This document shows, in pieces, positions 1 to 26,380 of a DNA stretch of 64,000 bases (its first letter is position 1; every line of letters begins with the position of its first letter). Where the stretch lies: positions 11,953 to 75,952 of the forward strand of contig CAVSJQ010000014.1 in the NCBI GenBank assembly GCA_963728355.1. Reading direction: 5' to 3'. Below the pieces are notes generated by a model that was not told the DNA's origin, did no database searches, and saw nothing but the letters and a program-made list of their open reading frames with translations. Both the position numbers and the translations under genes were made by a program. The stretch comes from Ilumatobacteraceae bacterium. GTDB taxonomy: Bacteria > Actinomycetota > Acidimicrobiia > Acidimicrobiales > Ilumatobacteraceae.

Positions 1-282
1 GAGGGCGAAACCAGTCACGGAGTCGGCGGCAAATACCACAAGGCGCAGTACAAGACGGTCTCGCTCCGACTGCATGCCGGCGACGCCGAGGTCAGCGAGT
101 ATCGCGAGTGGGAGGCCCCGGTCGGCTTCGTGCAGGGCTGGCACAGCTACAGCTTCGTCCTGCTCGGCAGCGTCGGCTTCCTCGACCGCTTCACGGTCAC
201 CGCGAGCCGCTTCGCCCAGGCGGTCGCCGTCGAGGAGCGCGACGCCTTCGACAACCGCTTCGGCGTCGTCGAGGTGAACTGA
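1..282 (+). CDS. 3' end of an ORF running off the left edge; hypothetical protein (tail weakly resembles retropepsin-like aspartyl-protease C-termini)
   Basis: Frame 1 is open from base 1 to TGA at 280-282 (...FVLLGSVGFLDRFTVTASRF...VVEVN*). It has no start in the window, so it is absent from the ORF track. Confidence 0.4.
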   Translation, partial: EGETSHGVGGKYHKAQYKTVSLRLHAGDAEVSEYREWEAPVGFVQGWHSYSFVLLGSVGFLDRFTVTASRFAQAVAVEERDAFDNRFGVVEVN

Positions 283-311: not shown

Positions 312-1037
312 TCATCCGGCCATGCGCAGCTCACTGAGGTCGAATGCGACCGTGTGATGAAACCCCCGGTCGCCCACCGTGCGACGCAGGGTGCGGAGGA
401 CGCTCTCCGGGTCGTCATCGGGGCCGTTCATGTAATACGGCTGGCCATCGCGACCGAACGAGATCGCGCTGGGACCTGTCCACGGACCAAGGTGCGGGCG
501 GGCCTGCTCGAAGTCCGGATGGGGCGCAAAGCCAAGCCCCTGGGCGAACTCGACAGCTCCCAGCACGAGGTCGCATACGAGATCGATCGGAGCGTTCACG
601 GGCGGCGCGGAGTAGGCGCCGAAGGCAAAGGCGGTGAGTGACCGCAGCCCTCGATCATCCATCTCGTCGGGACCCATTGCGTTCTTGACCCCAAGGCAAT
701 AGGCATCGACCAAGTAGACGCAAGCCATGATCTTGCGCCGATGAGGTCTGCGACGGGCGACGATCGCGGTCAGCAAGCCCTCGGTTCCCTCTGCGGCGCC
801 CGAATCGCGCCAGTCGGCTCGATCCGGAACTCCAAGGCCTGCGCTCCATCCGGCGTTGAGCCAGCAGCCGAGAAGGTCAGCGTCGGGATTTGCGCTGTCG
901 CGCTCGGCGGCGAGCTTGCGGACAAGCGCAGACGCCTCGGCGGTCTTGATCCCGAGGCTGCGAGCGATCTCCCTGGGCGATAGGCCCTGGCCGCGAAGCT
1001 CGCGAACCTTCTGCGTCATGGCGTCGTCAGCCATCAA
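312..1037 (-). CDS. helix-turn-helix domain protein of unknown function
   Basis: 241-aa ORF. N-terminal HTH-like segment LSPREIARSLGIKTAEASALVRKL, then about 190 aa with no motif I recognise. Divergent from the primase-helicase gene across a 61-bp spacer. Confidence 0.6.
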   Translation of the reverse strand: MMADDAMTQKVRELRGQGLSPREIARSLGIKTAEASALVRKLAAERDSANPDADLLGCWLNAGWSAGLGVPDRADWRDSGAAEGTEGLLTAIVARRRPHRRKIMACVYLVDAYCLGVKNAMGPDEMDDRGLRSLTAFAFGAYSAPPVNAPIDLVCDLVLGAVEFAQGLGFAPHPDFEQARPHLGPWTGPSAISFGRDGQPYYMNGPDDDPESVLRTLRRTVGDRGFHHTVAFDLSELRMAG

Positions 1038-1098: not shown

Positions 1099-3525
1099 GT
1101 GAACGCCGATCGCGATCTTGCCGCGGAGATCCTCGCTGAGGAAGCTCGACTCGACGAGCTCACTCGTCGCCGCAACGACTCCCACCGTCGCCTGAATGAG
1201 CTGCGCGCCACCAAGACGGACGACTCTGGCGAAGAGGAGGCGTCGAGAGCCGCGACGTCGAGCGACAGCTGGTCGCCCGAGCGCAAGCTCCAACTCTTCG
1301 AGCGCCTGTTTCAGGGCCGGCCAGATGTCTTTCCCAAACGCTGGGAGAACGCCAAGGGTCGCAGCGGGTGGGCGCCCTGCTGCGCCAACGAGTGGAAACC
1401 GGGGGTCTGCGAGAAGCCGCGGGTGAAGTGCGGGGAGTGCCCGAACCAGGCGTTCGTAGCGCCTGCAGAACATGAGCTCCGCACCCACCTCGAAGGCCAC
1501 GACGTCATGGGCGTCTATCCGCTGCTCGCCGACGACACCTGTCGCCTGCTGGCAATCGATCTCGACGGGCATGCGTGGCGCGAAGACATCACCGCGATCT
1601 GCGAAGCCTGCGAGGAGCTCGCCGTCCAACCCGCGGTCGAGCGCTCCCGCTCGGGCCAGGGCGCGCATGTCTGGTTTTTCTTCAGCGAGGCCGTCTCGGC
1701 GGCGAGCGCCCGTCGCTTAGGGCTGATGCTCCTGACGAACGCCATGTCGCGGTCCCCAACTCTCGACATGGCCTCCTACGACCGTCTCTTCCCAAGCCAG
1801 GACGTCCTGCCGAAAGGCGGTTTCGGCAACCTGATCGCGCTGCCGCTTCAACAGGAGGCGCGTCGAGCAGGCAACACGCTCTTCCTCGACGAGCAGTTCG
1901 ATCCTTATCCAGATCAGTGGGCCTACCTCGATTCGCTCCCCCTGATCGAACCCCAAGGGCTCGACGACCTCATCGCAGACCGCGAGCGTGACTCTTGGAT
2001 ACTCGGCGCAGGTGAGGAACCGGCGGATGACGCGCCTTGGCGCCCGACTCGAACTCTTGCCGATCGCCTCGCGACGACGACGCTTCCCGAGACCGTCACC
2101 GCGACCATGGCCCAATGTCTCTACGTGAAGCGCGGGGGCCTGCCGCCGCCACTCCACGATGCTCTGCGGCGCCTGGCTTGCTTCTCCAACCCGCGGTTCT
2201 TCGAACTTCAGGGCATGCGGTTCTCCACCTCACGCACACCGCGGGTGATCTCCTGCTTCGAGGAGGTCGGCGACTTCCTGGCGTTGCCCCGCGGATGCCG
2301 AGAGCCTTTGGAGGAACTGCTCGACGGCCTCGGCATCGAGCTGAAGCTTGACGACGAGCGCAGCGACGGCACTGATCTCGACGCCCGCTTCATCGGCGAG
2401 CTCGACCCGACGCAGGCCAGTGCAGCGGCGCACATGCTGGAACACGATCTTGGCGTCCTCTGCGCTCCGCCCGGGAGCGGCAAGACTGTGATCGCCACCG
2501 AGATGATCGCCGCGAGGGCGCGCTCAACTCTGGTCCTCGTCCACCGCAAACCCCTGCTCAAGCAGTGGAGGGAACGCCTGTCGCAGTTCCTCGACATCGA
2601 TCCGGAGGCCATCGGCACTATCGGCGGTGGATACAAGAAACCGACGGGCCTGCTCGATGTGGCGATGATCCAAAGTCTGGCGCGACGCGATGCGCTGGAG
2701 GAACTGCTGGCCGGCTACGGTCACGTGGTCGTAGATGAGTGCCATCACGTCTCCGCCGTGACAACCGAGCGAGTCCTGAAGGCCGCCCGGGCACGCTACG
2801 TGACGGGCCTGACCGGCACCCTCCGTCGGCGCGACGGTCACCATCCGATCGTCGCAATGCAGTGCGGGCCAGTCCGCCACACGATCGCCCAGGGACCGAC
2901 GGACAAGCACGCGCTGCAACTGCGCGTCATTCGTCGCGATACCGACTTCGATCCCTCCGTGCTCCCCACGGACGCCTCGATCCAGGAGGTCTTCGGCGCC
3001 CTCGCGGGGGACGAAGGGCGGACAAAGCTGATCGCCGACGAGGCGCTGCAGCTGATCGACCAGGGCCGCTCGCCGATCGTGCTCACCGAACGGCGCGAGC
3101 ATCTCGAAAAGCTCCAGCTGCATCTCGTCGATCGCGCACCGGTCCTCGTCGCGCTCCACGGTGAGATGTCAGCAGCGGCCAATCGAGCCGCCACCGAGCA
3201 GCTCGCTGCCGTGCCCGAGGGAGAGCCCTGCTTGGTGCTGGCAACCGGCCGCTACATCGGCGAGGGGTTCGACGAACCGCGCCTCGACACGCTTTTGCTC
3301 GGAATGCCGATCGCCTGGAAGGGGACAGTCGTTCAGTACGCCGGACGTCTTCATCGCCCCTTCCCCGAAAAGCGCGACGCGCTCATCTACGATTACGTAG
3401 ACGCCGAGCTACCCGTGCTGCGCCGCATGTTCGCCAAGCGTCTCAAGGCGTACCGATCTCTCGGATATGAGGTCGAGGAGCCGCGATCCACGTCAGGGGA
3501 TCTGCGTCAGGCACCGCGCCGCTGA
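1099..3525 (+). CDS. archaeo-eukaryotic primase (AEP)-like domain fused to an SF2 DEAH-box helicase
   Basis: 808-aa ORF with GTG start. Cys cluster CCANEWKPGVCEKPRVKCGECPNQ. AEP-type motifs LAIDLDGH and GAHVWFFF. Helicase motif I CAPPGSGKT and motif II VVDECHH, plus a C-terminal helicase lobe. From memory (not searched) it resembles the family NCBI labels TOTE conflict-system AEP proteins. Confidence 0.8.
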   Translation: MNADRDLAAEILAEEARLDELTRRRNDSHRRLNELRATKTDDSGEEEASRAATSSDSWSPERKLQLFERLFQGRPDVFPKRWENAKGRSGWAPCCANEWKPGVCEKPRVKCGECPNQAFVAPAEHELRTHLEGHDVMGVYPLLADDTCRLLAIDLDGHAWREDITAICEACEELAVQPAVERSRSGQGAHVWFFFSEAVSAASARRLGLMLLTNAMSRSPTLDMASYDRLFPSQDVLPKGGFGNLIALPLQQEARRAGNTLFLDEQFDPYPDQWAYLDSLPLIEPQGLDDLIADRERDSWILGAGEEPADDAPWRPTRTLADRLATTTLPETVTATMAQCLYVKRGGLPPPLHDALRRLACFSNPRFFELQGMRFSTSRTPRVISCFEEVGDFLALPRGCREPLEELLDGLGIELKLDDERSDGTDLDARFIGELDPTQASAAAHMLEHDLGVLCAPPGSGKTVIATEMIAARARSTLVLVHRKPLLKQWRERLSQFLDIDPEAIGTIGGGYKKPTGLLDVAMIQSLARRDALEELLAGYGHVVVDECHHVSAVTTERVLKAARARYVTGLTGTLRRRDGHHPIVAMQCGPVRHTIAQGPTDKHALQLRVIRRDTDFDPSVLPTDASIQEVFGALAGDEGRTKLIADEALQLIDQGRSPIVLTERREHLEKLQLHLVDRAPVLVALHGEMSAAANRAATEQLAAVPEGEPCLVLATGRYIGEGFDEPRLDTLLLGMPIAWKGTVVQYAGRLHRPFPEKRDALIYDYVDAELPVLRRMFAKRLKAYRSLGYEVEEPRSTSGDLRQAPRR

Positions 3526-3560: not shown

Positions 3561-4388
3561 TTGAAGCGGGCCGCCCTCACAGCCATGCTGGCCGTTGTGC
3601 CTGTCTGCGCATTGCCAGCAACCCCCGCACAGGCCGCCGCCATCGGCTGGCCAGGGCAATGGATGGCAAAGGCGATCCGACAGGATCGTAGGATCAGCAA
3701 GGAATTCCGGCACAGCTCCGCGCATCACATCCGCTGCTCGCCTCATGTCGCCTCCCGGTACCGCTGCCGAATGGAATGGGAGATCGGAGACACAGCCTTC
3801 TTCGGCCACGGCCATGTGGCCTTCCGTTCCGAAGGAGAAACGCTCTACTGGGATTCGACTATTCGGTCCGGCGGGTCGACACCTACTGCCAGAGCACCCA
3901 TAAGCGTCATTGCATCAAGCGCTTTCGGCGACACAGCCCGCCCGGCGGGCTTCTCGTCCAGTAATTGTCGGCCCCGGGGGGATGTGGGGGCATCACAAGC
4001 TGGCACAGCTCAGCTGCTGCGATGCAGTCTTCTGAGATTCGACCCGGGACGACAAAGGTACCGCTGGCTCGTGCTAGGCAGCAGTCGAAAGACCGGGCTC
4101 ATCGCCGAGCACCGCCGCCGCGATCTTCTCCGCAATCACCTCAACCGAGTCACGCACCGTCTCGAATCCGGCCAGGTCGGGCAGGATGCCGCTGTACTCG
4201 GCGACGTCCTCGAAGGTCACGCCGTGCAGGACCGGGATCAGCGTCTCCTTATGCAGCAGCGCTCCCAGCTCCCGCTCAGTCCAGAATCGCCCCGCAAGGT
4301 AGGCCGGGGTCAGCAGCGCGATTCCAGCCCGCGCCTTCTGCAGCCCCATGTCCATCTGCCGCGCCTGACTCTTGCCCGCTTCGACTGA
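3561..4388 (+). CDS. possible small secreted protein; the 3' end is not believable as drawn (possible pseudogene)
   Basis: TTG start followed by a good signal peptide (MKRAALTAMLAVVPVCALPATPAQA/AAIG) in a lower-GC 548-bp gap. The frame then stays open for 315 nt antisense to the TIR gene, which is typical GC-rich read-on. Confidence 0.25.
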   Translation: MKRAALTAMLAVVPVCALPATPAQAAAIGWPGQWMAKAIRQDRRISKEFRHSSAHHIRCSPHVASRYRCRMEWEIGDTAFFGHGHVAFRSEGETLYWDSTIRSGGSTPTARAPISVIASSAFGDTARPAGFSSSNCRPRGDVGASQAGTAQLLRCSLLRFDPGRQRYRWLVLGSSRKTGLIAEHRRRDLLRNHLNRVTHRLESGQVGQDAAVLGDVLEGHAVQDRDQRLLMQQRSQLPLSPESPRKVGRGQQRDSSPRLLQPHVHLPRLTLARFD

Positions 4389-5021
4389 AACCTCGTCGAA
4401 CCACACCGTCACTTCGAATCCTTCCAGCCGCTCGCGCAGCTCTGCCCCAACCTCGGCCCCGTCGATCCGTGCGTAGCTCAGGAACGCGTCGACCTCGCGC
4501 TCCTCCGCCGCTGGCAGGGCGGCCTGTAGCTGGTCGGCAAGCGCCATCTCCGACGCCGTGTAGCGCGGGCCCGACTCGGCCGTTCGCAGTCGCTGATTCA
4601 GCTCCGCCATAACCTTGCGGTTGTGCTCGTTGGCGGCCGCAATCTGCCGATTATGGGCTTCCACCGCCCGCCGATTCTGTTCTTCGATCCGCTTGTTCTG
4701 CCGTTCGGTCTCGCGATTGTGTTGGTCAACGCGCCTTTTGTTCTCGCGGTTTACGCGGTCGACCTCCCGGTTGTAGTTGTCGACCGCGCTCTTGTTGGCT
4801 TGTTCGACCTTGCGGTTGTGCGCCGCAATCTCCCGGTTCACGCGGTCGACCTCTCGCTTCGCAGCGGTCTCCGCCTTGCGGTGGGCTTCACCCAATTCTC
4901 GTTCGAATCGTCTCGGATCGAAGGCTCCGGGCATCGAACTCATCAGTTTCGCAGGCACCGCGGCGGAAACTAGCGTGCGCCGGGCAACCAAACACAGACA
5001 TCGGCTCATCTCACTTTGCAC
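4074..5021 (-). CDS. TIR-domain protein with N-terminal Asn-Arg-repeat coiled coil
   Basis: C-terminal TIR motifs DAFLSYARIDG, WFDEVSVEAG and FWTERELGALL (conserved Glu present). The N-terminal ~110 aa are a charged repeat with NR every 7-8 residues (VDRVNRE IAAHNRK VEQANKS...). The start is uncertain: GTG 5021, ATG 5009, or ATG 4943/4934. It lies 36 nt downstream of the relaxase stop on the same strand. Confidence 0.8.
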   Translation of the reverse strand: MQSEMSRCLCLVARRTLVSAAVPAKLMSSMPGAFDPRRFERELGEAHRKAETAAKREVDRVNREIAAHNRKVEQANKSAVDNYNREVDRVNRENKRRVDQHNRETERQNKRIEEQNRRAVEAHNRQIAAANEHNRKVMAELNQRLRTAESGPRYTASEMALADQLQAALPAAEEREVDAFLSYARIDGAEVGAELRERLEGFEVTVWFDEVSVEAGKSQARQMDMGLQKARAGIALLTPAYLAGRFWTERELGALLHKETLIPVLHGVTFEDVAEYSGILPDLAGFETVRDSVEVIAEKIAAAVLGDEPGLSTAA

Positions 5022-5057
5022 AGTTTACGAGCGTTCTCCCGACCTGGCGAGTGCTCC

Positions 5058-8000
5058 TTATCGCGCAATCCTAAGTCCTCGCCGCAACTCCCTCGTGCGC
5101 GCTCTGCTCTGCTCGCGCCCCAGCCGCCGCTGCAGCTCGCGCAAGCGGCGCAGCTCGGCCTCTCGGCGGGTGCGCTCGAGGCTGCGCTCGGGCTTGGCGC
5201 CGAAGGCGCGACTGCGGTCTGTGATCCCGTTCTCTTGGCGGTAGCGCTCAATGATCCCGATGCCGTGCTCCCACTCCCTGCGTTTGGCGGGGTCGGCCGG
5301 CCTCTCCCCCAACTCGGCGGTGACGTAGGGGGGCGGGGCGATGCGGGCGGCGGTGAGCGAAAGCTCACGCCGCTGGGCGAGAACGCGATCGACGGTGATC
5401 AGCTCCCGCTGCGCGGCGTCGCCGCCCGCAAGCTCGCGCATCTCCACCTCGTAGCGAGCGAGCGCTTCCCCTGCCATCCCAGCAGTGGCGCCGAGGCGGG
5501 CGATCAGGCCCTGATCGCGCTTGCGGGAAGGCAACGCCTCGGCGGCTTCCCGTTCGGCGCCGGCGCGAGTCAGGATCGCCTCCGTCTCGGCGATGCGCGT
5601 CTTCAGGCGCGCGCGGCGCTCGGCAAGGATCTTCTCGCGATCCGCCGCCCGCTCCAGCTCGCGGCGCCTTGCCGCAAGCTCTGCGGTGGGCAAGGCCTCC
5701 AGCTGGGCCTCATCGTGGGCGGCGCGCTGGGCGCCGTCTCGGCCGACGGCCAGCGCGATGTGGTCGAGACCCTCCCCCAGGCGGCGATCGGTGGGCGCGA
5801 TCTCCTCGCGGTTGACCTGGACCTCCGGAGTCGCGTAGAGGCGGGTCTCCCCGCGACTGCGCGAAGCGGCCACATACAGCTCCTGCTTGTCCATCGAGGG
5901 GTCGGCCATGACAAAGGCGCGGTCGACCGTCGAGCCTTGGGCCGAATAGGTCGTTACCGCGTAGGCGTGCTCAAGGGCCGGGGCCTCGGAGTGCGGGTTG
6001 GTCCGCGCCAGGTACTCCGCGCCGACCTCGACCCGCTTCGCCTGGTCGACACCTTCGAGGACGACGCTCCCCTGCTCGGCGTCGACTTCGGCGATTCGCC
6101 AGCGCTCGCGGTTGTAGATGTCGGCGCGCTGGTCGTTGACGCGGGTGATGACCTGATCGCCGGCGGCGAAGCGTGCTTCGCCGACTTCGATCTCCTCGGC
6201 GCCGAGCCTGCCTTCCTGGTGGCGGGCCTCGCGCGCAATCGCGTTCAGCTTCGCAACCTCGGCGTTGCGCTTGGCGATCATCAGCGCGTCCTCGCCGCGC
6301 TCGTAGGACTCCAGCCAGTCGCGGACCATCGCCTCGCGGCGGGCCTCGGCGTCGGGGGCGACTGTGACCCGCTCCTCGGAGACGTAGAGGTCGAGCGCCT
6401 CGCGTCCCTCGCCCCCGCGGATCAGCTTCGCCGCCTCGCGGTCAAGCTCGTGCTCGTGGCGGATCACCTCGTCGAGGTGGATCGGCTCGCTGCGATCAGC
6501 GATGGCGCGGAACAGTCCGCCCGCCTCGATCTCCCCCAGTTGCTCGGGGTCGCCGAGGAGGACGAGCTTGGCTTCGGCCGCCTCGGCGTGGTGGACGAGC
6601 CGGGCCAGGGTCGCAGAGTCGACCATCCCCGCCTCGTCGACCAGCAGCACCGAGCCCTGCGCCAATCCCTTACTGCCCTCGTGCTCTGCGCGGTCCAGCT
6701 CGACGAGCAGGCTGGCGATCGAGGTCGCCGGCAACCCCTCGTCGCGCAGGACGTTGGCGGCGCGCCAGGTGGGAGCCGCGGCGCGGAGGTCGATCCCCGC
6801 CTGCACCCAGCCCTCGGCCGCGGCGACGACGGCGTAGGTCTTGCCGGTGCCGGCCTCGCCGATCACGACGACGATGCCCTCGGGCATCGTCAGCAGGCGG
6901 TTGACCATCTCGCGCTGGTCGGCCTTCAGGGTCGGGCGGGCGTGGATGACACGAGCGGCCGCCAGCTCCCCGGCCGGGGCAGACCCCTGCTCGCGCATCC
7001 GCTCGATCGCCGCCAGCGCCTCGCGCTCCAGCTCCCAGATGTGACGGGTGGTGTAGATCGGGCCTTTGCGGCTCTCGGCGATCTGGATCACTTCCTCGGA
7101 GGCGAGGTAGGTATCTGCCATGCGCTCGACCTCCGGCCCCGACGCTCCCTCGGGGAGCAATCCGGCAACCGCCTGGATTGCGTCGCGCCTGTCGAAATGC
7201 GAGGCGCCCCCCGTGACTGTACGGTCCACCTGCTGGGTGAGGACCGTGCAGTCACGGGGGGCGCCGGGCTCTGTGAGCCTCAGCTGCGGGTTTGGGTCGA
7301 AGGTGCGCTCGATCGTCTCGCGGTCGAGGCCGATCTCCCTCGCCCTGGCCCGCCAGCGCTCCAGCAGCTCCACGCGCGAGAGGGCGGTGTCCTTCGGCTT
7401 GCGCGTCGCCAGCGTCGCCACCTGCATCGAGGCCGCCGAGGCGTCCGGCCCGGCCGCCGCGAGGATTTCAGCCCGGCGGGTGGAGAACGCCCGCAGATGC
7501 TCGTCGGCGAAACCCTCGACCTCGGCGATGCCGTTGCGGACCTCCTGCCAGCGGACGCCGAGGCGCAGAGTCAGCTCGTGGCGCAGATGGGCCTCATACA
7601 GGTAGCCGGCGACTTTGCCGTGCTGGTAGATCGCCGGGTGGTAGAGGCGGGTCCAGCGGCCGTCCGGCCCTTTCGTCGCGTTGGCGATGAGGACATGGGT
7701 GTGCAGCTGCGGATCGCCGTTGCGCGAGGAGCGGTGCAGGTAGGCGACGGCTAGGTAGCCGTTGCCTTGGACGAACTCCCTGCCGCCGGCTCCGCGCCTC
7801 GTCCAGCAGGCCTTGCGCTGAAGGTAGGCGAGGGCGGCGCCTACGGATTCGCGGTGCGCCGCCTTGACCTGTCCGGCGGCCTCGGCTCCGCCGAGCCCCC
7901 ACAAGAGCGAGACTGACTTGGGAGCCGAGAAGGTGAGGTCGAAGCCTGGCACCGAGCCCTTCGCGGGGACGCCGTTTCTCCCCAGCAAGGGCTCGCCGTC

Positions 8001-8198
8001 GACCGGGTTTCGGCCGGTGAGCATCGCCTTGAGCTGGTCGGAGCCGACCTCGCCGTCGAGTCCCAGCTCCTCGGCGGCGTCGCCGATCCACTCGCCGGCC
8101 GCCTCTCCCTCGCCGGAGTAGTAGTCCTCGGCGCCTTCGGCGACCTTCTCCAGGTAGTAGTTCTCCTGGCCGATGCCGAGCTTTCCGATCGTGAGCAT
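5058..8198 (-). CDS. MobF-family relaxase (TrwC/TraA type) with C-terminal RecD-like helicase
   Basis: 1046 aa. N-terminus MLTIGKLG...ENYYLEKV...AEDYY (catalytic Tyr region) and the His triad region LHTHVLIANAT. Helicase Walker A VVVIGEAGTGKT and Walker B LLVDEAGMV. Confidence 0.9.
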   Translation of the reverse strand: MLTIGKLGIGQENYYLEKVAEGAEDYYSGEGEAAGEWIGDAAEELGLDGEVGSDQLKAMLTGRNPVDGEPLLGRNGVPAKGSVPGFDLTFSAPKSVSLLWGLGGAEAAGQVKAAHRESVGAALAYLQRKACWTRRGAGGREFVQGNGYLAVAYLHRSSRNGDPQLHTHVLIANATKGPDGRWTRLYHPAIYQHGKVAGYLYEAHLRHELTLRLGVRWQEVRNGIAEVEGFADEHLRAFSTRRAEILAAAGPDASAASMQVATLATRKPKDTALSRVELLERWRARAREIGLDRETIERTFDPNPQLRLTEPGAPRDCTVLTQQVDRTVTGGASHFDRRDAIQAVAGLLPEGASGPEVERMADTYLASEEVIQIAESRKGPIYTTRHIWELEREALAAIERMREQGSAPAGELAAARVIHARPTLKADQREMVNRLLTMPEGIVVVIGEAGTGKTYAVVAAAEGWVQAGIDLRAAAPTWRAANVLRDEGLPATSIASLLVELDRAEHEGSKGLAQGSVLLVDEAGMVDSATLARLVHHAEAAEAKLVLLGDPEQLGEIEAGGLFRAIADRSEPIHLDEVIRHEHELDREAAKLIRGGEGREALDLYVSEERVTVAPDAEARREAMVRDWLESYERGEDALMIAKRNAEVAKLNAIAREARHQEGRLGAEEIEVGEARFAAGDQVITRVNDQRADIYNRERWRIAEVDAEQGSVVLEGVDQAKRVEVGAEYLARTNPHSEAPALEHAYAVTTYSAQGSTVDRAFVMADPSMDKQELYVAASRSRGETRLYATPEVQVNREEIAPTDRRLGEGLDHIALAVGRDGAQRAAHDEAQLEALPTAELAARRRELERAADREKILAERRARLKTRIAETEAILTRAGAEREAAEALPSRKRDQGLIARLGATAGMAGEALARYEVEMRELAGGDAAQRELITVDRVLAQRRELSLTAARIAPPPYVTAELGERPADPAKRREWEHGIGIIERYRQENGITDRSRAFGAKPERSLERTRREAELRRLRELQRRLGREQSRARTRELRRGLRIAR

Positions 8199-8566
8199 CC
8201 ACCCCGTATGTCCAGCGGGGGGCGCTTTTGCATCGGCTCACCCGGCGGGGTGATACTGCGTGAGGGTGGTGGCTGTTGGCTTTTGGCTGTGGGGGAGCTG
8301 GCCGGCTGATTGGCCCCTGCCAGTGCTGAATTCCTGGGCTGGCCTTCGAGTCTCTGGTGCCCCTGGCCGGATGGCTGGAGTGGGCAGGTGACTGGCTGAC
8401 TGAATGGATGGCTGGCTGGATTCTGATTGGTCGTTCACGGCTGATTCCGCATCGGCAGCGATGCAAGAAGCGCTCCCGTTGGACAGTAGGGGTGATGGAG
8501 CAGCGACCACGGCAGCGCGAGAGGCGCCGGCAAGCGGCTGGGCCGCCTCGCCAACGCGATGGGCGC
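8199..8566. promoter_or_regulatory. candidate oriT / relaxase promoter region
   Basis: 368-bp lower-GC spacer directly upstream of the relaxase. At least 8 same-strand copies of GGCTG between 8270 and 8443. Three CTGATT(G/C) copies. Hairpin GCATCG-GCAG-CGATGC at 8449-8464. Confidence 0.3.
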
Positions 8567-8779
8567 ATGGAGCCCAGGGCGAAAACCTCGGCCGACCTTC
8601 TCTGCGAACCGCTGCTCGACGCCAGCCAGGCGGCCGAGCTCCTTCATGTGCCGCGCAGCACGCTCTACGAGCTGGTGCGCTCGCGGGGGCTGCCCCACGT
8701 GAAGGTTGGACGGCGTGGGCTCAGGTTCACCCGCGTCGACCTCGCCCGATGGGTCAGCGCCAATAGCGTCGGCCGTTAG
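8567..8779 (+). CDS. excisionase-type (MerR-like HTH_17) DNA-binding protein
   Basis: 70-aa reading from ATG 8567 inside the longer ORF 8357-8779. LLDASQAAELLHVPRSTLYELVRSRGLPHVKVGRRGLRFTRVDLARWV is the typical Xis/AlpA-like helix-turn-helix. Confidence 0.7.
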   Translation: MEPRAKTSADLLCEPLLDASQAAELLHVPRSTLYELVRSRGLPHVKVGRRGLRFTRVDLARWVSANSVGR

Positions 8780-8834
8780 GAGCCGTCGTTCGGGGATGGC
8801 AGGGGCGCGCCGCCTGTTCGGGAATACTGGGGTG

Positions 8835-9983
8835 ATGACCGTCCGCGTTCATGTTGAGCCGTCGCTGCTGGAATGGGCCAGCGAGCGCTCTGGCAAGAAC
8901 CCCGACGATCTGAGCCGGCGGGTTCCGCGACTGGCCGCGTGGACCCGGGGCGACGCCCAGCCGACGCTGAAGCAGTTGGAATCCTTTGCACGGGCGACGA
9001 GCACGCCGGTGGGGCTCCTGATGCTGCCCGAGCCACCAGACATGCCGCTTCCCGTCCCGGATTTCAGGACGCTGCCGAATGCAGCCGCTGCTCCGGCAAG
9101 CCCGGATCTGCTCGACACGATCTACCTGTGCGAAGAGCGGCAGGACTGGTATCGAAGCTACGCCTTGGTCAACGACGCGGATCCACTGGATTTCGTCGGT
9201 TCCGCGACGACAGAGGACGATGTCGTTTCCACCGCCGATCGCATGAGGACCAAGCTCGGATTCGACCTCGCGTCCCGCCGCGAGTATTCGAGCTGGACAG
9301 AGGCGCTCGGCAAGCTCAGCGAAAGAGCCGAGGACATCGGCGTTCTCGTGATGATCAGCGGGATCGTCGGCAGCAACACCCACCGAGCGCTCAACCCCGA
9401 TGAGTTTCGTGGCTTTGCCCTGGTCGACGATCTCGCCCCGGTCGTGTTCATCAACGGCGCCGATACCAAGGCGGCTCAGATCTTCACCCTGGCGCATGAG
9501 CTCGTACACATATGGCTCGGGCAGCCAGCGGTGTCCAACCCGCGCCTTGATGTCCGACGCGAGGACCAGCAGGTAGAGCGCTTCTGCAATGCCGTCGCGG
9601 CGGAGCTGCTCGTTCCGTCGGTGCATCTGGAGGGGGAGTTCGATCCGAGCAGACCACTCGCCGATGAGCTGGACCGGCTTGCCCGCCTCTATCGCGTCAG
9701 CACCCTTGTCGTCCTGCGGCGGATCTTCGACGCCGGCCAGTTGTCGTGGAACGAGTACAACGGCGCGTATTCCGAACAGAAGTCCCGACTCGCGCGAGCG
9801 ACGAAGGGCGGCGGGGGGAACTTCTACAACACCCAGCCCGCGCGGACGAGCAAGCGCTTTGCCCACGCCGTGATCGCCGACGCCCTTGAAGGGCGGACGC
9901 TGCATCGGGACGCGTTCCGGCTCCTCGGCGTCCGCCGATACAACACGTTTCGCGAACTCGGACACAGGCTCGGACTTCCGTGA
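8835..9983 (+). CDS. XRE-like HTH + ImmA/IrrE (COG2856) zinc metallopeptidase
   Basis: Start ATG 8835 chosen within ORF 8706-9983. HExxH motif HELVHIWLG. The N-terminal ~70 aa are HTH-like. The stop TGA overlaps the GTG start of the next gene (GTGA). Confidence 0.85.
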   Translation: MTVRVHVEPSLLEWASERSGKNPDDLSRRVPRLAAWTRGDAQPTLKQLESFARATSTPVGLLMLPEPPDMPLPVPDFRTLPNAAAAPASPDLLDTIYLCEERQDWYRSYALVNDADPLDFVGSATTEDDVVSTADRMRTKLGFDLASRREYSSWTEALGKLSERAEDIGVLVMISGIVGSNTHRALNPDEFRGFALVDDLAPVVFINGADTKAAQIFTLAHELVHIWLGQPAVSNPRLDVRREDQQVERFCNAVAAELLVPSVHLEGEFDPSRPLADELDRLARLYRVSTLVVLRRIFDAGQLSWNEYNGAYSEQKSRLARATKGGGGNFYNTQPARTSKRFAHAVIADALEGRTLHRDAFRLLGVRRYNTFRELGHRLGLP

Positions 9984-10468
9984 CGTACCTCCTCGACGCC
10001 AATGTGTTCATCCAGGCCAAGAACCTCCAGTACGGGTTTGACTTCTGCCCGGCATTCTGGGACTGGCTCGACGCGAAATCCCAGGCCGGACAGGTCGGCA
10101 GCATCGAGAAAGTCCTCGACGAGCTGAAGGCCGGGGGAGATGATCTCTCCACCTGGGCGACCGCCCGGCCAGGATTGTTCGCGCAGCCAGACACCCCCGT
10201 CGCGGAGAGCCTTCAGGCAGTCAGCCGGTGGGCGGCATCCGCCCACTACGACCCGGCTGCGGTCAGCACCTTCCTCCAAGACGCCGACTACTACCTCGTC
10301 GCCCACGCGCACGCACATGAACTCACCGTCGTCACGCATGAGGTGCCCGCCAACTCGGTGAAGAAAATCAAGATCCCCAATGCGTGCATCGATCTTCAGA
10401 TCAAGTGCATGAGCCCATACGAGATGCTGCGGGTCGAGCATGCCCGGTTCGTCCTCGGGCGAGCCTAG
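9980..10468 (+). CDS. DUF4411-family PIN-like nuclease
   Basis: 162 aa. N-terminus MTYLLDANVFIQAKN is typical of PIN-like DUF4411. Translationally coupled to the ImmA/IrrE gene. Confidence 0.8.
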   Translation: MTYLLDANVFIQAKNLQYGFDFCPAFWDWLDAKSQAGQVGSIEKVLDELKAGGDDLSTWATARPGLFAQPDTPVAESLQAVSRWAASAHYDPAAVSTFLQDADYYLVAHAHAHELTVVTHEVPANSVKKIKIPNACIDLQIKCMSPYEMLRVEHARFVLGRA

Positions 10469-10494
10469 GAGACAGAGATGGAAGGGTGCGTGGG

Positions 10495-13400
10495 ATGCAG
10501 CTGACTGACGAGCGGCTTCTGCTGTCGGCCTCCGATTTGGTCGACTTCCTCGCCTGCCGGCATCTGACCGCCCTCGAATTCGGACGCGCTCATGGGCGAG
10601 TGGACGATCCTCCGCCACGCGCAGCCGACACCGCCGACTTGGTGGCCAGGAAGGGTGAAGAGTTCGAGCAGCGTCATCTCGAAGCTCTGCGCGCCGAGCA
10701 CGGAGATGCCCTGGTCGAGATCGAGACCGGCTTAGGCTACGACAAGCTCGTCGAGGCCTCCGCGCGCACTCAGGAAGCCATGGAAGCCGGTGCGCCTGTC
10801 GTCTACCAGGCAGCATTCCTCGGCGGCGACTGGATGGGCTACGTCGATTTCCTCGAACGAGTCGCGTCACCATCGAAGCTGGGCGACTGGAGCTACGAGC
10901 CGGCCGACACCAAGCTCGCGCGCTCGCTGAAGCCTTACTTCGTAATCCAGCTCTGCCTCTATGCCGACCTGATCGACGCGGTTCAAGGGCGCAGGCCCGA
11001 CCACATCCACGTGATCCTCGGCAGTGGCGAGCGCCGAACGCTTGCGCACGCTGACTTCCGCTCCTACTTCGCTCGGATGAAAGGGCTCTACCTGGAGACC
11101 CTCGCCAACGGACTCGACGTGACCTATCCCGATCCGGTCGCCCACTGCGAACTATGCAAGTGGGCCGAGCCGTGCGAGCAGCGTAGGGTCTCTGACGATC
11201 ACCTGAGCCTTGTCGCCAAGCTCGGCGGCGCACAGGCGGCCAAGCTGCAGGAGGGCGGGATCGAGACGGTGGAGGCGCTGGCCGCCGTTGAGGTGGATGC
11301 ACGGCCGAATGGCATGGCCGCCGGCACCTTCGAACGGCTGCGTTCCCAGGCGTCACTGCAGACGGAGGAGCGGCAAAGTGGCCAGATCAAGCTGCAGCGC
11401 CGGCGGCCGGAGCCGATCGGCGATGGGCCGCTGCGCGGCTTCGCACGAATGCCCGCCCCTTCCCCGGGCGATGTCTTCTTCGACATCGAGGGGGACCCCT
11501 TCTACGACGAAGGGCTCGAGTACCTGTGGGGCGCCACCTACATCGAGGACGGCGAGCCGACCTTCAAGGCGTTCTGGGGCACGGACAGAGCCGGCGAGAA
11601 GACGGCCTTCGAGGAATTCGTCGACTTCGTGTTTGCGCGGCGCGAGCGCTTCCCCGAGATGCACGTCTACCACTACGCACCATACGAGCGAACCGCGCTA
11701 GCACGAATGATGGGCTTGCACGGCAGCCGCGAGGACGAGGTGGACCGACTGCTGCGCGAGCATGTCCTCGTCGATCTCTATCGGGTTGTCGACCAAGCCC
11801 TGCGGATCTCGCGACCCAGCTACTCGCTGAAGGAGGTCGAGGCTTTCTACGACCAGGGACGCACCGCCGAGGTCAAGCAGGCAGGCGACTCGGTTCTGAT
11901 GTTCGAGCAATGGCTGCAGGAGGACGACGCGGAGCTGCTCTCCAAGATCGAGGAGTACAACAAGGAGGACTGCGATTCGACGCTCCGTCTGCGGGACTGG
12001 CTGATCGAACAACGCGAACTCACCGAACGAGAGCACGGCGTGCAGCTCCCGTGGCGACTGCCGGGACAACCAACCGAGCCCGACGAGGACGAGACGGATG
12101 TACTTGGCGAAACGGTAGAGCTTCAGGAAGCCTTGCTCAAGGACGTTCCCGCGGACCCCGACGAGCGCAGCGACGATCAGCGCGAGGCCTGGCTCCTAGC
12201 CCAACTGCTCGACTACCACCGGCGTGAGGCAAAGCCCGCATGGTGGCAGTGGTTCGAACGCCTCGAGCGAACCTCGGCCGAGCTGGCGGAGTTCGATTCG
12301 GAGGCGATCGGGGAGCTGAACCCGATCGGCGAGGCCGTGGCGCTGCCGAAGCCGTCGCGGTCCTTCGTCCAGCGCTTTTCTTTCCCCGCGCAAGACCACA
12401 AGGTCCGCGCCGGAAAGTTCGCCGATCCTCATAGCTGCGGCATCGATCCAGAGACGGGCGAGTCCGACCACAAAGCGAAAACCGTCGATGTGCTCGATGT
12501 CAACGACGCCGCTGGAGAGCTCCGCCTGAAGCTCAGCAAAGCCCGACTCGAAGACCCGCCGAAGGCGCTGATCCCCGGCAGGCCCTACGGGACCAACGAG
12601 CAGCGAGGCGCTCTGCGTGACATCGCCACCGACGCGATCGCGAGCGACGGCGGCGAATTCTCACGCTTCAAGGCGGCTGACGACATTCTCGGCCGCCGCC
12701 TCCCCCGCACTTCCGCAGTCGCCAATGGCGATGCACTCCAGGGCGAGGAGGCGAACCTTGAGCAGATCAAGCGGGTCGCGGCCGGACTCGAAGAAAGCTA
12801 TCTCTTCATTCAAGGCCCTCCCGGCTCGGGCAAGACGTACACCGGCGCGCATGTAATCCTCGACCTGATCGCCGGTGGCAAGCGCGTCGGTGTGACCTCC
12901 AACAGCCACAAGGCGATCAACAACATCCTCGCCGAGGTCGAACGGTTCGCCCGCGCAGACAAGGTCGCCGTTCGCGGCCTCAAGAAGTGGTCCTCAAGCG
13001 ATCAGGAATACACCCCGCCGGACGCGGATGACGGGGATCCTATGATCGGCAACTCGAAGGACAACGCCGCCTTCGGGCCCAATGCGGAGCTCGATTTGAT
13101 GGCCGGAACCGCCTGGCTGTGGTGCCGCGAGGAGATGCGGCAATCGGTCGACTATCTCGTCGTCGACGAGGCAGGGCAGATCTCGCTGGCGGACGCGCTG
13201 GCGCTCTCCACCGCGGGTACCAACCTGATCCTGCTCGGCGACCCCCAGCAACTCGCCCAGGTGAGCCAGGGGACCCACCCCCCGGGCTCCGGCGTCTCGG
13301 TCCTCGAGCACCTGCTCGGCGACCACAGCACGATCCCAGCCGAGCGCGGCATCTTCCTCGAGCACTCGCGGCGGATGCACCCCGACGTCTGCGACTTCGT

Positions 13401-13980
13401 CTCCGAGGCGATCTACGAAGGGCGTCTGCGCGCAGCACCGGGCTGCGAGCGACAGCGTGTAGACGCGCCGGGCTCTCTGACCGGAACCGGCGTCCGGTCG
13501 ACCCCCATCGAGCACAGCGGCAACTCGCGCCAGTCACCCGAGGAGGCCGAGCGAATCGCCGTCGAGATTGCCGACCTTTTGGAGGGGCGATACACGAACA
13601 AGGACGGCGAACAAGGCGCTCTCACCCAAAGCGAGATCATGGTCGTTGCCCCCTACAACGCGCAGGTCCGGGCCATCCGCAGCCAACTCGACTCCCAGGG
13701 CTATACCGAAGTAGCGGTCGGCACGGTCGACAAGTTCCAGGGGCAGGAGGCCGCAGTCGTCTTCTTCTCGATGGCTACCTCCTCCGGCGCCGAGATCCCC
13801 CGCAACGTCGACTTCCTCTACTCCCGCAATCGCCTCAACGTCGCCGTCTCTCGCGCCCGCTGCCTTGCCGTCCTGGTGGCCAGCCCGGCGCTGATGACCA
13901 TCGAGTGCGACACGGTCGAGCAAATGCGCCTTGTGAACGCGCTCTGTCTTCTCGACGAGTTGGGATCGAACAGCGATTAG
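10495..13980 (+). CDS. RecB/Cas4-like PD-(D/E)xK nuclease + RNaseH-like exonuclease fold + SF1 Upf1/Dna2-like helicase (TM0106-type nuclease-helicase)
   Basis: ATG 10495 within ORF 10384-13980, 1161 aa. N-terminal Cys (DFLACRH) plus CELCKWAEPC (C...CxxCx5C). GYVDFLE...YEPADTKLA nuclease core. FFDIEGDPFY...HYAPYE...NKEDCDS. Helicase motifs GPPGSGKTY, VVDEAGQ, DKFQGQE and NVAVSRAR. Confidence 0.85.
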   Translation: MQLTDERLLLSASDLVDFLACRHLTALEFGRAHGRVDDPPPRAADTADLVARKGEEFEQRHLEALRAEHGDALVEIETGLGYDKLVEASARTQEAMEAGAPVVYQAAFLGGDWMGYVDFLERVASPSKLGDWSYEPADTKLARSLKPYFVIQLCLYADLIDAVQGRRPDHIHVILGSGERRTLAHADFRSYFARMKGLYLETLANGLDVTYPDPVAHCELCKWAEPCEQRRVSDDHLSLVAKLGGAQAAKLQEGGIETVEALAAVEVDARPNGMAAGTFERLRSQASLQTEERQSGQIKLQRRRPEPIGDGPLRGFARMPAPSPGDVFFDIEGDPFYDEGLEYLWGATYIEDGEPTFKAFWGTDRAGEKTAFEEFVDFVFARRERFPEMHVYHYAPYERTALARMMGLHGSREDEVDRLLREHVLVDLYRVVDQALRISRPSYSLKEVEAFYDQGRTAEVKQAGDSVLMFEQWLQEDDAELLSKIEEYNKEDCDSTLRLRDWLIEQRELTEREHGVQLPWRLPGQPTEPDEDETDVLGETVELQEALLKDVPADPDERSDDQREAWLLAQLLDYHRREAKPAWWQWFERLERTSAELAEFDSEAIGELNPIGEAVALPKPSRSFVQRFSFPAQDHKVRAGKFADPHSCGIDPETGESDHKAKTVDVLDVNDAAGELRLKLSKARLEDPPKALIPGRPYGTNEQRGALRDIATDAIASDGGEFSRFKAADDILGRRLPRTSAVANGDALQGEEANLEQIKRVAAGLEESYLFIQGPPGSGKTYTGAHVILDLIAGGKRVGVTSNSHKAINNILAEVERFARADKVAVRGLKKWSSSDQEYTPPDADDGDPMIGNSKDNAAFGPNAELDLMAGTAWLWCREEMRQSVDYLVVDEAGQISLADALALSTAGTNLILLGDPQQLAQVSQGTHPPGSGVSVLEHLLGDHSTIPAERGIFLEHSRRMHPDVCDFVSEAIYEGRLRAAPGCERQRVDAPGSLTGTGVRSTPIEHSGNSRQSPEEAERIAVEIADLLEGRYTNKDGEQGALTQSEIMVVAPYNAQVRAIRSQLDSQGYTEVAVGTVDKFQGQEAAVVFFSMATSSGAEIPRNVDFLYSRNRLNVAVSRARCLAVLVASPALMTIECDTVEQMRLVNALCLLDELGSNSD

Positions 13981-16419: not shown

Positions 16420-16500
16420 TGGCATGACCCCCTGAAATCGGTCCGACCCTTGTGAGAGTCCTACCGGCCCGCGAAACTGGGCCAAGGAGGACCGACGCAA

Positions 16501-17729: not shown

Positions 17730-17743
17730 ATGGGGGCCTTCCA

Positions 17744-24993: not shown

Positions 24994-26148
24994 TTAGGCC
25001 CCCTCGCTGAACGCCGCTGAAATGCGGCGGGCGGCGTCTTGGCGGGGCTTGAATTGGAGGTAGCGCTGGGTGGTTGCGAGGTCTTGGTGGCCCATCCACT
25101 CCATGACCTCGCGGGAGTCGGCGGTGCGGATCGCGTGGGAGCCGAAGGTGTGGCGGAGGTCGTGGAAGCGGAGCTGGCGAAGGCCGGCTTTCTTCAGCGC
25201 GGCCTTGTAGCGGTCGCGGAGCTTGTGGCCGGCGAGGTGGCCGCCCTGGGCACCGCAGAAGACGAGGTCGTCGTCTCCGGCGTGGTCCTTCCGCTTGCCC
25301 AGCTTGGCGAGCGCCTTCGCGGCCTCGTCGGCCATCGGCACGGTGCGCTCCTGGCCGCTCTTTGGCGTGTCGACGCGGCCGTTGGTAAAGCTCTGGCGGA
25401 CATGGATCGCGCTGTTGGCGAAGTCCACGTCGCGCCAGCGGAGCGCGAGCAGCTCGCCGAGGCGCAGGCCGGTGAAGGCGGCCGTGAGGTAGACCGTGCC
25501 GTCCTGCTCGGAGGCTGCGGCGCGGACCAGCGCCAGAACCTCCTCGCGGGAGAAGACGTCGATGTTGCCGCGCTTCGCATTCGGGCGGCGCTCGACGCCG
25601 GCGACCGGATTCGCGGGCAGCTTGTAGCGGCGCCGCGCCCAGACGAAGACGCCGTGCAGGACCGTCAGGTACTTGTTGACGGTCCGGTCCGAGAGCCCTT
25701 CCTCGACCAAGGCGTCGCGGAAGCCCTCGACCATCTCCTCGGTCACGTCCTCAAGGCGGAGCTTCGCCCCGAACCTCTCGCCGAAGATCTTCTTCATCCG
25801 GTCGACCATGTGCTCGTAGTCGATCTGGGTCGAGAGCTTGATCTTGCGGTCGCGCTTGTAGGCGAGCCACGCGCCGCAGGCGGCGTCGAAGGTCACGCCG
25901 GTCCTGACCATCCCCGGCAGCTCGCCGCGACGGGCTTTCGCGAGCGTGTCGTCCAGCCAGGCCCGGGCGCTCGCCTTCGTGTAGGTGCCGGGCGCCGGCT
26001 CGTGCTTGCGGTCGGACCAGTGCGGGCCGATCCGGCGCTGGACCTGGCGGCCGTCGGGCAGCCGGTACTTCGCATACCAGACGGCGCCGCGCCTGCCCTC
26101 GCGTTTGAAGACGTGGCCGCTGATCGCCCTTGTCGCTTGCCTTGCCAT
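24994..26148 (-). CDS. int: tyrosine-type site-specific integrase
   Basis: ATG 26148 chosen within ORF 24994-26220. Catalytic region HDLRHTFGSHAI...LATTQRYLQ. Lies next to the 3' end of tRNA-Glu. Confidence 0.9.
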   Translation of the reverse strand: MARQATRAISGHVFKREGRRGAVWYAKYRLPDGRQVQRRIGPHWSDRKHEPAPGTYTKASARAWLDDTLAKARRGELPGMVRTGVTFDAACGAWLAYKRDRKIKLSTQIDYEHMVDRMKKIFGERFGAKLRLEDVTEEMVEGFRDALVEEGLSDRTVNKYLTVLHGVFVWARRRYKLPANPVAGVERRPNAKRGNIDVFSREEVLALVRAAASEQDGTVYLTAAFTGLRLGELLALRWRDVDFANSAIHVRQSFTNGRVDTPKSGQERTVPMADEAAKALAKLGKRKDHAGDDDLVFCGAQGGHLAGHKLRDRYKAALKKAGLRQLRFHDLRHTFGSHAIRTADSREVMEWMGHQDLATTQRYLQFKPRQDAARRISAAFSEGA

Positions 26149-26195
26149 CTCGCTTTCCTTGTCGAGATCGAGGCGGCTTTGCATCGCTCGCCCGA

Positions 26196-26246
26196 AACTT
26201 TGTCCCAAGATTTCTAGCACGAACTCGGGACAAACTTTGGGACAAA
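26196..26246. promoter_or_regulatory. repeated GGGACAAA motifs (candidate integrase/Xis arm-type sites or int operator)
   Basis: AAACTTTGTCCC (26196-26206) is inverted relative to GGGACAAACTTT (26227-26238). A further direct GGGACAAA lies at 26239-26246. All sit between the int start and the tRNA. Confidence 0.3.
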
Positions 26247-26274
26247 GAGGGGAATCGCCCAGCGTCAGACCATC

Positions 26275-26296
26275 AAAAAACCCCGCTTTTGCGGGG
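26275..26296 (-). terminator. rho-independent terminator downstream of tRNA-Glu
   Basis: The minus strand reads CCCCGC-AAAA-GCGGGG followed by TTTTTT. Confidence 0.7.
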
Positions 26297-26307
26297 CTAT
26301 TGTCTGA

Positions 26308-26380
26308 TACCGCTACGGGGATTCGAACCCCGGTTTCCGGACTGAGAATCCGGCGTCCTAGTCCCCTAGACGATAGCGGC
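26308..26380 (-). tRNA. tRNA-Glu (anticodon CUC)
   Basis: Hand-folded cloverleaf. Acceptor GCCGCTA/TAGCGGT (G1-U72). Anticodon arm CCGGA-TTCTCAG-TCCGG. T arm CGGGG-TTCGAAT-CCCCG. 73 nt, CCA not encoded. Confidence 0.85.

Follow-up and report, generated by a model that had tools for sequence, protein, structure and literature searches.

A helix-TIR protein gene behind a MOBF relaxase on a tRNA-integrated island of an Ilumatobacteraceae bacterium: a candidate single-protein immune effector

The helix-TIR gene and its predicted enzyme domain

We analyzed a stretch of 64,000 nucleotides, called the window here, from an Ilumatobacteraceae bacterium (GenBank assembly GCA_963728355.1, contig CAVSJQ010000014.1, positions 11,953 to 75,952 of the forward strand). 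The subject is a minus-strand gene that encodes a long repetitive helix followed by a TIR domain and that lies downstream of a gene for a MOBF relaxase (Table 1). A first-pass annotation of the same DNA had described the product as a TIR effector fused to an unusual coiled coil of Asn-Arg repeats, and had offered two roles for it: a self-assembling defence effector or an establishment/anti-defence factor. Residue numbers of the window protein refer to its 289-residue form, with M1 at 4941-4943.

The C-terminal part of the protein matched Pfam TIR_2 (E 4e-13). An AlphaFold2 model built with 121 sequences (mean predicted local distance difference test score, pLDDT, of 86) contains a single unbroken helix (residues 10-121), then a short helix in the linker, and finally the TIR fold (residues 151-279). 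When PDB sequences were searched with the family profile, the best matches were AbTir (E 3.4e-21), PdTIR (E 1.9e-18), TcpB/BtpA and BtTir. Foldseek likewise placed PdTIR, BtpA/TcpB, BtTir and AbTir closest to the model, with target-normalised TM-scores of about 0.8-0.88 and a root-mean-square deviation of about 2 Å. The motif FWTERELG is present, and its residues W221, E223 and E225 are invariant in 121 homologues.

In AbTir, mutagenesis has established the roles of residues G174, S176, D182, K202, W204, T205 and E208. AbTir E208A is inactive, W204A loses cyclisation, and G174 and S176 in the BB loop are needed for head-to-tail assembly. In the profile alignment these seven positions lie opposite G190, S192, D198, R219, W221, T222 and E225 of the window protein, respectively, all of which are invariant or nearly so in the 121-sequence alignment. 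The BB-loop assembly residues are thus present, G190 without exception and S192 in all or nearly all sequences. The conservation of both catalytic and assembly residues makes the predicted competence of the window protein as an NADase well supported, and the protein is probably competent as a cyclase too. The TIR domain with its conserved glutamate context, recognized earlier from FWTERELG, is therefore confirmed by the Pfam match, the modelled fold and the invariant E225 opposite the catalytic E208, and the NADase competence then called plausible agrees with the conserved residues.

The minus-strand open reading frame (ORF) at 4074..5021 spans 315 codons when counted from a GTG and shows the high GC content at third codon positions (GC3) expected of coding sequence in a window with 70% GC. 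The GTG at 5019-5021, judged by the relatives, is probably not the start that is used. The N-termini of homologues begin with MPxGFDP, and the four close relatives at loci L006-L009 have AAA at the position of the first ATG in the window and share with it the ATG at 4934-4936 as well as about 45 nt upstream of that codon. The protein should consequently have 286 residues and no more than 289, which leaves 114-121 nt between its start codon and the stop codon of the relaxase gene (5058-5060). The gap of 36 nt and the tight co-transcription with the relaxase reported in the first-pass annotation both depended on the GTG-extended frame, for which the relatives offer no support. We found neither a promoter-like nor a terminator-like consensus site in the spacer, so that co-transcription is possible but not indicated. 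Moreover, at L008 the same TIR gene and upstream block adjoin an integrase/tRNA remnant with no relaxase, and the TIR gene therefore does not depend on the relaxase promoter.

Between the long helix and the TIR domain, the linker residues Y128, T129, E132 and L135 are invariant in a 21-sequence alignment. On the opposite strand, an ORF at 3561-4388 (+) with a signal-peptide-like start, MKRAALTAMLAVVPVCALPATPAQA, extends into the TIR gene, overlapping its 3' end in antisense orientation; the ORF's first ~170 codons represent a possible gene for a small secreted protein.

Table 1. Positions of the helix-TIR gene, its parts and flanking features in the window
Feature	Position	Strand	Details
Helix-TIR gene	4074..4943	-	289 aa from ATG 4941-4943; start shared by relatives, ATG 4934-4936, gives 286 aa
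N-terminal tip motif (M)PxGFDPxxFxRE	4917..4943	-	Before and at the helix start; F8, D9 and R15 nearly invariant in alignments
Uninterrupted alpha-helix, residues 10-121	4581..4916	-	11 N[R/K] motifs; seam of Asn and Val/Ile
Linker including GPRYT and a short helix (residues 130-142)	4494..4580	-	Fixed length; between long helix and TIR
TIR domain, residues 151-279	4107..4493	-	Pfam TIR_2, AlphaFold2 model, Foldseek, PDB profile search
WxxxE motif, W221-T-E-R-E225	4269..4283	-	E225 codon 4269-4271; W221 codon 4281-4283
31-nt direct repeat, copy 1	4742..4772	+	Contains ACGCGGTCGACCTC at 4753-4766
31-nt direct repeat, copy 2	4829..4859	+	Contains ACGCGGTCGACCTC at 4840-4853
Spacer, relaxase stop to TIR start	4944..5057	-	Promoter-proximal ~45 nt kept in relatives, including L008
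MOBF relaxase (TrwC and AAA_30 helicase)	5058..8198	-	Upstream, same strand; TrwC E 3.3e-83, AAA_30 E 1e-49
Island right end	24994..26380	-	Tyrosine integrase 24994-26220 (Phage_integrase E 1e-30); tRNA-Glu 26308-26380 (ARAGORN)

A repeat helix found with two kinds of effector

The helix of 112 residues is modelled with a pLDDT of about 97 through its core. The dipeptide N[R/K] occurs 11 times in the N-terminal half of the protein at spacings of 7, 7, 8, 7, 3, 8, 7, 7, 8 and 10 residues, a number that none of 10,000 shuffles of the region produced, and the earlier observation that NR recurs about 11 times every 7-8 residues was accordingly correct. On an ideal alpha-helix, the Asn residues and the Val/Ile/Leu/Met residues fall on one straight stripe, a seam that is flanked by Arg. 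For the Asn positions of the window protein the resultant length is 0.66 at a period of 3.6 residues versus 0.03 at 3.5, and only 10 of 20,000 random placements reached 0.66. Across 98 homologues the combined seam has a best period of 3.66 residues (interquartile range 3.64-3.67) and almost no signal at 3.5. This is the 11/3 (hendecad) value, and it follows from the 7-7-8 spacing of the N[R/K] motifs.

The term "coiled coil" used previously thus needs qualification. The N-terminal half is rich in repeats and is modelled as helix only, but the seam has a period of 3.66 and not the 3.5 of a heptad. Nor is the repeat an oddity of this copy, as "unusual" had implied, since it is conserved family-wide in more than 1,100 proteins. 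Furthermore, the helix contains 41 pairs of opposite charges at i/i+3 and i/i+4, compared with 20 ± 3.6 in shuffled sequences (median z-score in the family 3.9), a pattern characteristic of independently stable helices. These data fit two structures: the helix could pack through an Asn/Val core into an almost straight, non-canonical bundle, or it could be a single helix, stable by itself, whose seam is semi-polar.

The length of the helix varies in a regular manner. The distance from FDP to PRYT ranges from 79 to 118 residues among the homologues, with one outlier of 153, and the lengths fall into clusters spaced by single helical turns (resultant length of 0.75 for a 3.6-residue period). The linker from PRYT to FLSYA in the TIR domain has 28 residues in 110 of 113 homologues. 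With whole-turn steps and a fixed linker, the azimuthal phase of the helix is conserved and its length is free.

The DNA repeats account for how the length may change. As noted in the first-pass annotation, there are exactly two copies of the 14-mer ACGCGGTCGACCTC, which start 87 nt apart at 4753 and 4840; we located both inside 31-nt direct repeats that are 87% identical and encode the duplicated peptide EVDRVNRE. With one mismatch allowed, the 14-mer has three matches in the window against a chance expectation of 0.18. In the 93%-identical L008 copy of the gene (L008:9990-10170, corresponding to window 4753-4840), 86 nt are deleted exactly between both GGTCGACC repeat copies and the frame is shifted. 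This deletion may have been mediated by the repeats, or may reflect a 1-nt assembly error if the metagenome-assembled genome comes from long-read data.

A profile of the helix without the TIR domain had 82 matches among 1.84 billion representative proteins. The matches sort into members or fragments of the TIR family, TPR proteins, and repeat-helix proteins of about 306-321 aa. We discarded the TPR proteins (~420-1,270 aa) as false positives caused by AIEDYNRAIELDP-like repeats. The third group (P0164, P0174, P0183, P0185, P0193, P0199, P0201 and P0202; locus L090:8001-8951) carries a helix with the repeat YNxEVDRVNRxN. In the five intact members that we scanned, this helix is fused to Pfam pP_pnuc_1 in place of the TIR domain (E 1e-34 to 1e-40), a family described in Pfam as a predicted pPIWI-associating nuclease. 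BLASTP aligned the window protein with P0193 at 36% identity over 107 residues (E 2e-11), and most of the pP_pnuc_1 proteins have the same seam period and charge pattern as the TIR family. The gene for P0193 stands alone in a defence island, between a gene for an Mrr-type nuclease and a pair encoding a Patatin and a CD-NTase (CBASS). Because it is found with TIR as well as with pP_pnuc_1, the helix acts like a module that can be combined with different toxic effector domains. A literature search that included pP_pnuc_1 and PF18165 found no publication describing a helix shared by TIR and nuclease effectors. The 3.66-residue seam, the whole-turn length variation among relatives and the fusion of this type of helix to pP_pnuc_1 are the features that we report as new.

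Relatives, the relaxase and the island

A word-indexed protein search identified at least 1,116 homologues among the 8,000 candidates that were scored, and the true number is probably higher. The homologues listed are 57-94% identical to the window protein over nearly the full length, helix included, and the majority are soil-metagenome sequences of Solirubrobacterales and Thermoleophilia. Among contigs taken from one genome per species, the family occurs in Actinomycetota, Pseudomonadota, Planctomycetota, Verrucomicrobiota, Spirochaetota, Acidobacteriota, Rhodothermales and others, with protein identities of 49-64% apart from the four closest relatives. From phylum to phylum the TIR domain hardly changes. 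The patchy distribution over many phyla, together with the nearly unchanging TIR domain, points to repeated horizontal transfer.

The helix-TIR architecture is already catalogued as PADLOC PDC-S66, a single-gene phage defence candidate. The window protein matches this model over its full length (residues 12-278 against profile positions 12-280 of 282; E 1.8e-36, 124 bits), and so did 20 of 20 diverse family members from seven phyla. PDC systems are a set of 145 candidate systems that were found embedded in BREX, DISARM or type I restriction-modification (RM) loci. Like PDC-S66, the window gene is a single gene without a conserved partner. The score of its hidden Markov model match is moderate, however, and the window family may be a divergent branch of the source of the model.

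To survey the neighbourhood, we grouped into families all the ORFs lying no more than 6 kb from the TIR gene at 85 loci. There was no conserved partner gene, as no neighbour family was present at more than 9 of the 85 loci. The families that recurred were short-chain dehydrogenases, HTH-ImmA/IrrE proteins, type I RM subunits, serine/tyrosine recombinases and TrwC relaxases, the first of which reflects synteny in one clade. A small query panel applied to 80 genome loci, 22 of them shorter than 12 kb, gave counts that are lower bounds: a MOBF relaxase within 10 kb at 7 or more loci, any mobility hallmark at 25 or more and type I RM at 8 or more. Type I RM or DISARM genes recur beside family members, and one relative lies on a conjugative element next to DISARM-like genes. 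Another is found in an island with genes for an OLD-family nuclease, nSTAND3, a KAP NTPase and AbiE, and a further one adjoins a Fic gene among ECF sigma factors.

Full-length members are also carried by three plasmids in PLSDB. On pR1CP2 of Rhodococcus opacus the gene order is MobF relaxase, TIR and an Abi-family gene, with a coupling-protein gene further on. On a MOBF plasmid of Rhodococcus erythropolis about 5 kb separate the TIR and relaxase genes, and a PemK toxin-antitoxin pair is close to the TIR gene. The Pseudarthrobacter plasmid copy has no relaxase nearby. Phage carriage was rejected, as 50,697 phage records contained no full-length member; the matches in them were a 25%-identical TIR protein of a Klebsiella prophage and one match to the TIR domain only. 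As a separate observation, the plasmid matches H44-H50, on many enterobacterial plasmids and one Achromobacter plasmid, have TIR domains about 62-64% identical to that of AbTir. Several of these genes are annotated as DUF1883 domain-containing, so they represent plasmid TIR effectors with varied N-terminal modules.

The relaxase lies directly upstream of the TIR gene in the clade of the window (L006, L007 and L009) and on pR1CP2, and at the Patulibacter locus L016 two opposite-strand ORFs separate the two genes. The order of relaxase and then TIR is therefore real and recurrent, yet it is a minority arrangement. The first-pass annotation had the TIR gene riding directly behind the relaxase and raised the question of how often its N-terminal repeat co-occurs with MobF relaxases; the shared strand, the upstream position and the recurrence stand, but the link is not general, and most copies sit by themselves, either within a defence island or at a chromosomal site. 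With so few loci and with L008, which keeps the gene and its upstream block in the absence of a relaxase, we rejected an obligatory partnership. Furthermore, the DNA of the TIR gene (4056-4981) is 92-93% identical to the window in L006-L008 and 85% in L009, whereas the alignable part of the relaxase gene (5677-8280) is about 81% identical in L006, L007 and L009, and in L006 and L007 its 3' part cannot be aligned. This difference suggests that the TIR gene is a cassette exchanged between elements or is under stronger constraint than its neighbour.

From position 1 to about 26.3 kb the window has a GC content of 0.61-0.71, compared with 0.69-0.77 in the remainder, and GC3 is lower as well. The GC shift and the integrase beside tRNA-Glu (Table 1) mark an integrated island, the left end of which lies outside the window. 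Its cargo comprises, in order, an AEP-TOTE primase-polymerase with an SF2 helicase, the TIR protein, the relaxase, an excisionase-like helix-turn-helix (HTH) protein, IrrE/DUF4411, an MkoA-like protein, a disrupted RM system and SIR2-HerA. The stretch of the island that the window covers has no visible gene for a type IV secretion system or a coupling protein, and "mobilisable defence island" therefore fits this visible part. The mobilisable element assumed in the first-pass annotation is thus borne out by a MOBF (TrwC) relaxase on a tRNA-integrated island. The absence of a neighbouring sensor that it reported also stands, as no STAND, Argonaute, SAVED or ThsA-like gene adjoins the TIR gene.

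Several of the neighbouring genes merit a brief description. A retropepsin-like aspartyl-protease gene with a DSGAD motif, 1-270 (+), runs off the left edge of the window. We did not retain it as a general partner, as homologues a few hundred nt downstream of the TIR gene were present only at L015:9329-9817 and L025:1788-2275, both from Solirubrobacterales. The AEP-TOTE/SF2 helicase gene, 1099-3525 (+), is convergent with the TIR gene at a distance of 548 nt; an HTH protein gene, 312-1037 (-), lies upstream of it, and there are no TPR-OB or TBP genes nearby. We rejected the TIR protein as a TOTE effector, because the AEP-TOTE gene is convergent and lacks those genes and because the pairing is absent in relatives except for one weak match among the 85 loci.

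On the other side of the relaxase, the gene for an IrrE/ImmA M78 peptidase overlaps that for a DUF4411 (PIN-like) protein by 4 nt, 8706-10468 (+), and IrrE/ImmA-type genes also recur beside TIR family members elsewhere. The gene at 10384-13980 (+) encodes a 1,198-aa protein with RNase_H_2 and an SF1 helicase (AAA_11/AAA_12) that matches PADLOC MkoA of Mokosh (E 4e-44). The RM system at 14307-21560 is broken by two insertions. An rve-type insertion sequence (IS; ~16418-17743) splits a BPTD_3080-like endonuclease/ResIII gene, the flanks of which are contiguous in L009, and a gene for an N6_N4 methylase is interrupted by an ISL3 element, whose transposase gene is at 19385-20632. Finally, the SIR2-HerA anti-phage pair, 21712-24916 (-), is situated just inside the integrase end of the island; its HerA has a C-terminal KTSC domain, and the SIR2_2 and HerA genes overlap by 11 nt.

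A proposed immune effector activated by clustering, and its alternatives

How does the helix-TIR protein compare with characterized TIR systems? AbTir consists of a coiled coil (27-118) and a TIR domain (134-267), and its gene is next to an integrase, just as the window island bears an integrase. Its activity depends on self-association, and the coiled-coil domain itself self-associates. TIR domains of the AbTir type are inactive as symmetric dimers and active when stacked head-to-tail in two-stranded assemblies, and AbTir turns most of its NAD+ into 2'cADPR. The window protein shares with AbTir, PdTIR, TcpB and BtTir the layout of a helix, a linker and a TIR domain, and retains the catalytic Glu, the Trp of WxxxE and the BB-loop Gly and Ser. 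Unlike AbTir, it has a helix with a stripe of Asn/Arg and a 3.66-residue period, and the identity of its TIR domain to the AbTir group is only about 30%. Homology of its helix to the AbTir-type coiled coil, represented by the N-terminus of a Niallia protein whose TIR domain is 71% identical to AbTir, was not significant (BLASTP E 0.009, with short low-complexity stretches).

SpbK provides a second point of reference. It is a single TIR abortive-infection protein encoded on ICEBs1, whose N-terminal domain, a four-helix bundle of residues 1-94, docks on the phage portal ring; the docking clusters the TIR domains into an active filament and leads to NAD+ depletion. The window protein is likewise a small single TIR protein carried by a mobile element, and we adopted the clustering of SpbK as the model for it. 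It differs in that its N-terminus is modelled as one helix rather than a four-helix bundle, and no SpbK chain was among its sequence or structure matches in the PDB. Other TIR-containing systems did not apply. SPARTA and other short prokaryotic Argonaute systems were rejected, as the protein has no APAZ domain and there is no Argonaute gene among its neighbours, and a SAVED or STAND partner was neither adjacent in the window nor recurrent in the relatives.

We favour the explanation that the gene encodes a single-protein TIR NADase immune effector that would be activated by clustering and that is carried as cargo of a tRNA-integrated island together with a relaxase and defence genes, to which we assign a probability of roughly 55%. 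In its favour, besides the conserved TIR domain and the match to PDC-S66, the island also carries SIR2-HerA, an IS-disrupted RM system, IrrE with DUF4411, an MkoA-like protein and an AEP-TOTE helicase, and relatives adjoin genes for an OLD-family nuclease, AbiE, nSTAND3, an Abi-family protein (on pR1CP2) and a PemK pair. The fusion of the helix to a second effector, in one case in an island adjoining CBASS, further supports an immune role, as swapping of effectors is typical of immune proteins. Of the two roles offered initially, the self-assembling defence effector is the better supported. Two observations weigh against this explanation. Some copies are found amid housekeeping genes or in conserved chromosomal synteny in Thermoleophilia, which is atypical for defence cargo, and the charge pattern of the helix would suit a stable single helix with no self-association as well.

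According to this model, the helix would hold the protein as an inactive dimer or small oligomer, and the helix or the N-terminal tip motif could be the surface that responds to an infection cue, possibly a multivalent one. Clustering would then allow the TIR domains to stack head-to-tail and form composite active sites, which would cleave NAD+ into nicotinamide and ADP-ribose (ADPR) or a cyclic ADPR isomer. The loss of NAD+, possibly together with a nucleotide signal, would stop the growth of the infected cell. The place of the gene behind the relaxase would then reflect carriage on MOBF elements rather than a joint function.

An alternative that we consider unlikely is a ThsB-like producer of a signal, namely a cyclic ADPR isomer for which a receptor or effector would be encoded at another place in the genome. 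The TIR domain matches the PADLOC ThsB models (ThsB1, E 5e-23), the Trp linked to ADPR cyclisation is invariant, AbTir makes mostly 2'cADPR, and an unlinked receptor has been proposed as a possibility for SpbK as well. However, ThsB proteins lack the long N-terminal helix, and a ThsA-type effector was neither adjacent in the window nor recurrent in the 85 loci, which led us to reject Thoeris. The same holds for SLOG, Macro or other nucleotide-receptor genes. The only SIR2 gene is about 19 kb away and paired with HerA, and a gene that moves alone between phyla is unlikely to need a receptor encoded by the host.

Slightly less likely again, in our estimate, is a function for the mobile element with the gene co-expressed with the relaxase, such as establishment, anti-defence, exclusion of rivals or post-segregational killing. 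The arrangement itself speaks for such a function: the TIR gene follows the relaxase on the same strand at 114-121 nt with no terminator-like site between them, the order recurs in the loci listed above, and two of the three plasmid copies lie between the genes for the MobF relaxase and the coupling protein. Against this, most copies have no transfer genes nearby, the gene persists at L008 with its own upstream block, there is no conserved antitoxin-like partner, and the plasmid neighbours are Abi and toxin-antitoxin cargo and not leading-region genes. Nothing that we found favours an establishment or anti-defence factor, the other option of the first-pass annotation.

We regard a host housekeeping or regulatory protein of NAD metabolism, with no role in conflicts with phages or plasmids, as very unlikely. 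The Thermoleophilia synteny, observed on several contigs with short-chain dehydrogenase and 2-oxoglutarate dehydrogenase genes adjoining, one position amid uvrA, uvrB and pantothenate genes, and the very strong conservation of the TIR-domain sequence would suit such a protein. However, the family is scattered over at least seven phyla at 50-64% protein identity, indicating horizontal transfer, the window copy resides in an island of low GC, and defence and mobility genes are frequent neighbours. Moreover, copies differ in their number of repeats, and one has been disrupted by a deletion that the repeats may have mediated. The last alternative is a virulence factor of the Tcp type, which would mimic the TIR adaptors of eukaryotes in the way proposed for TcpB/BtpA, TcpC and TirS. 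The helix-plus-TIR layout is shared, and Brucella TcpB/BtpA is among the closest solved structures, but such a role is extremely improbable for a protein that has no secretion signal, is encoded among defence and mobile-element genes, and is carried mostly by soil and water bacteria (Solirubrobacterales, Rhodococcus, Microbacterium).

Returning to the clustering-activated immune effector, we tentatively extend the explanation to the helix itself, a proposal that we hold to be possible but doubtful. The Asn/Arg-seamed 11/3 helix could be a previously undescribed, swappable module for sensing or assembly that defines an immune class of single "helix-effector" proteins, in which it would drive either a TIR NADase or a pP_pnuc_1 nuclease. 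Its length would be changed by whole turns through recombination of the repeats, and its polar seam would read an infection cue or set the threshold for clustering. The polar Asn seam, the non-heptad period, the whole-turn lengths and the reuse with a nuclease make the helix the feature most worth following up. For annotation, the gene is best described as encoding an AbTir-like helix-TIR protein, a PDC-S66 candidate on a defence island, and not as a relaxase accessory factor. If our model is right, the family would be among the simplest TIR immune proteins, with one helix and one enzyme domain in at least seven phyla, and would offer a convenient system for learning how a TIR NADase stays off and switches on without a dedicated sensor domain.

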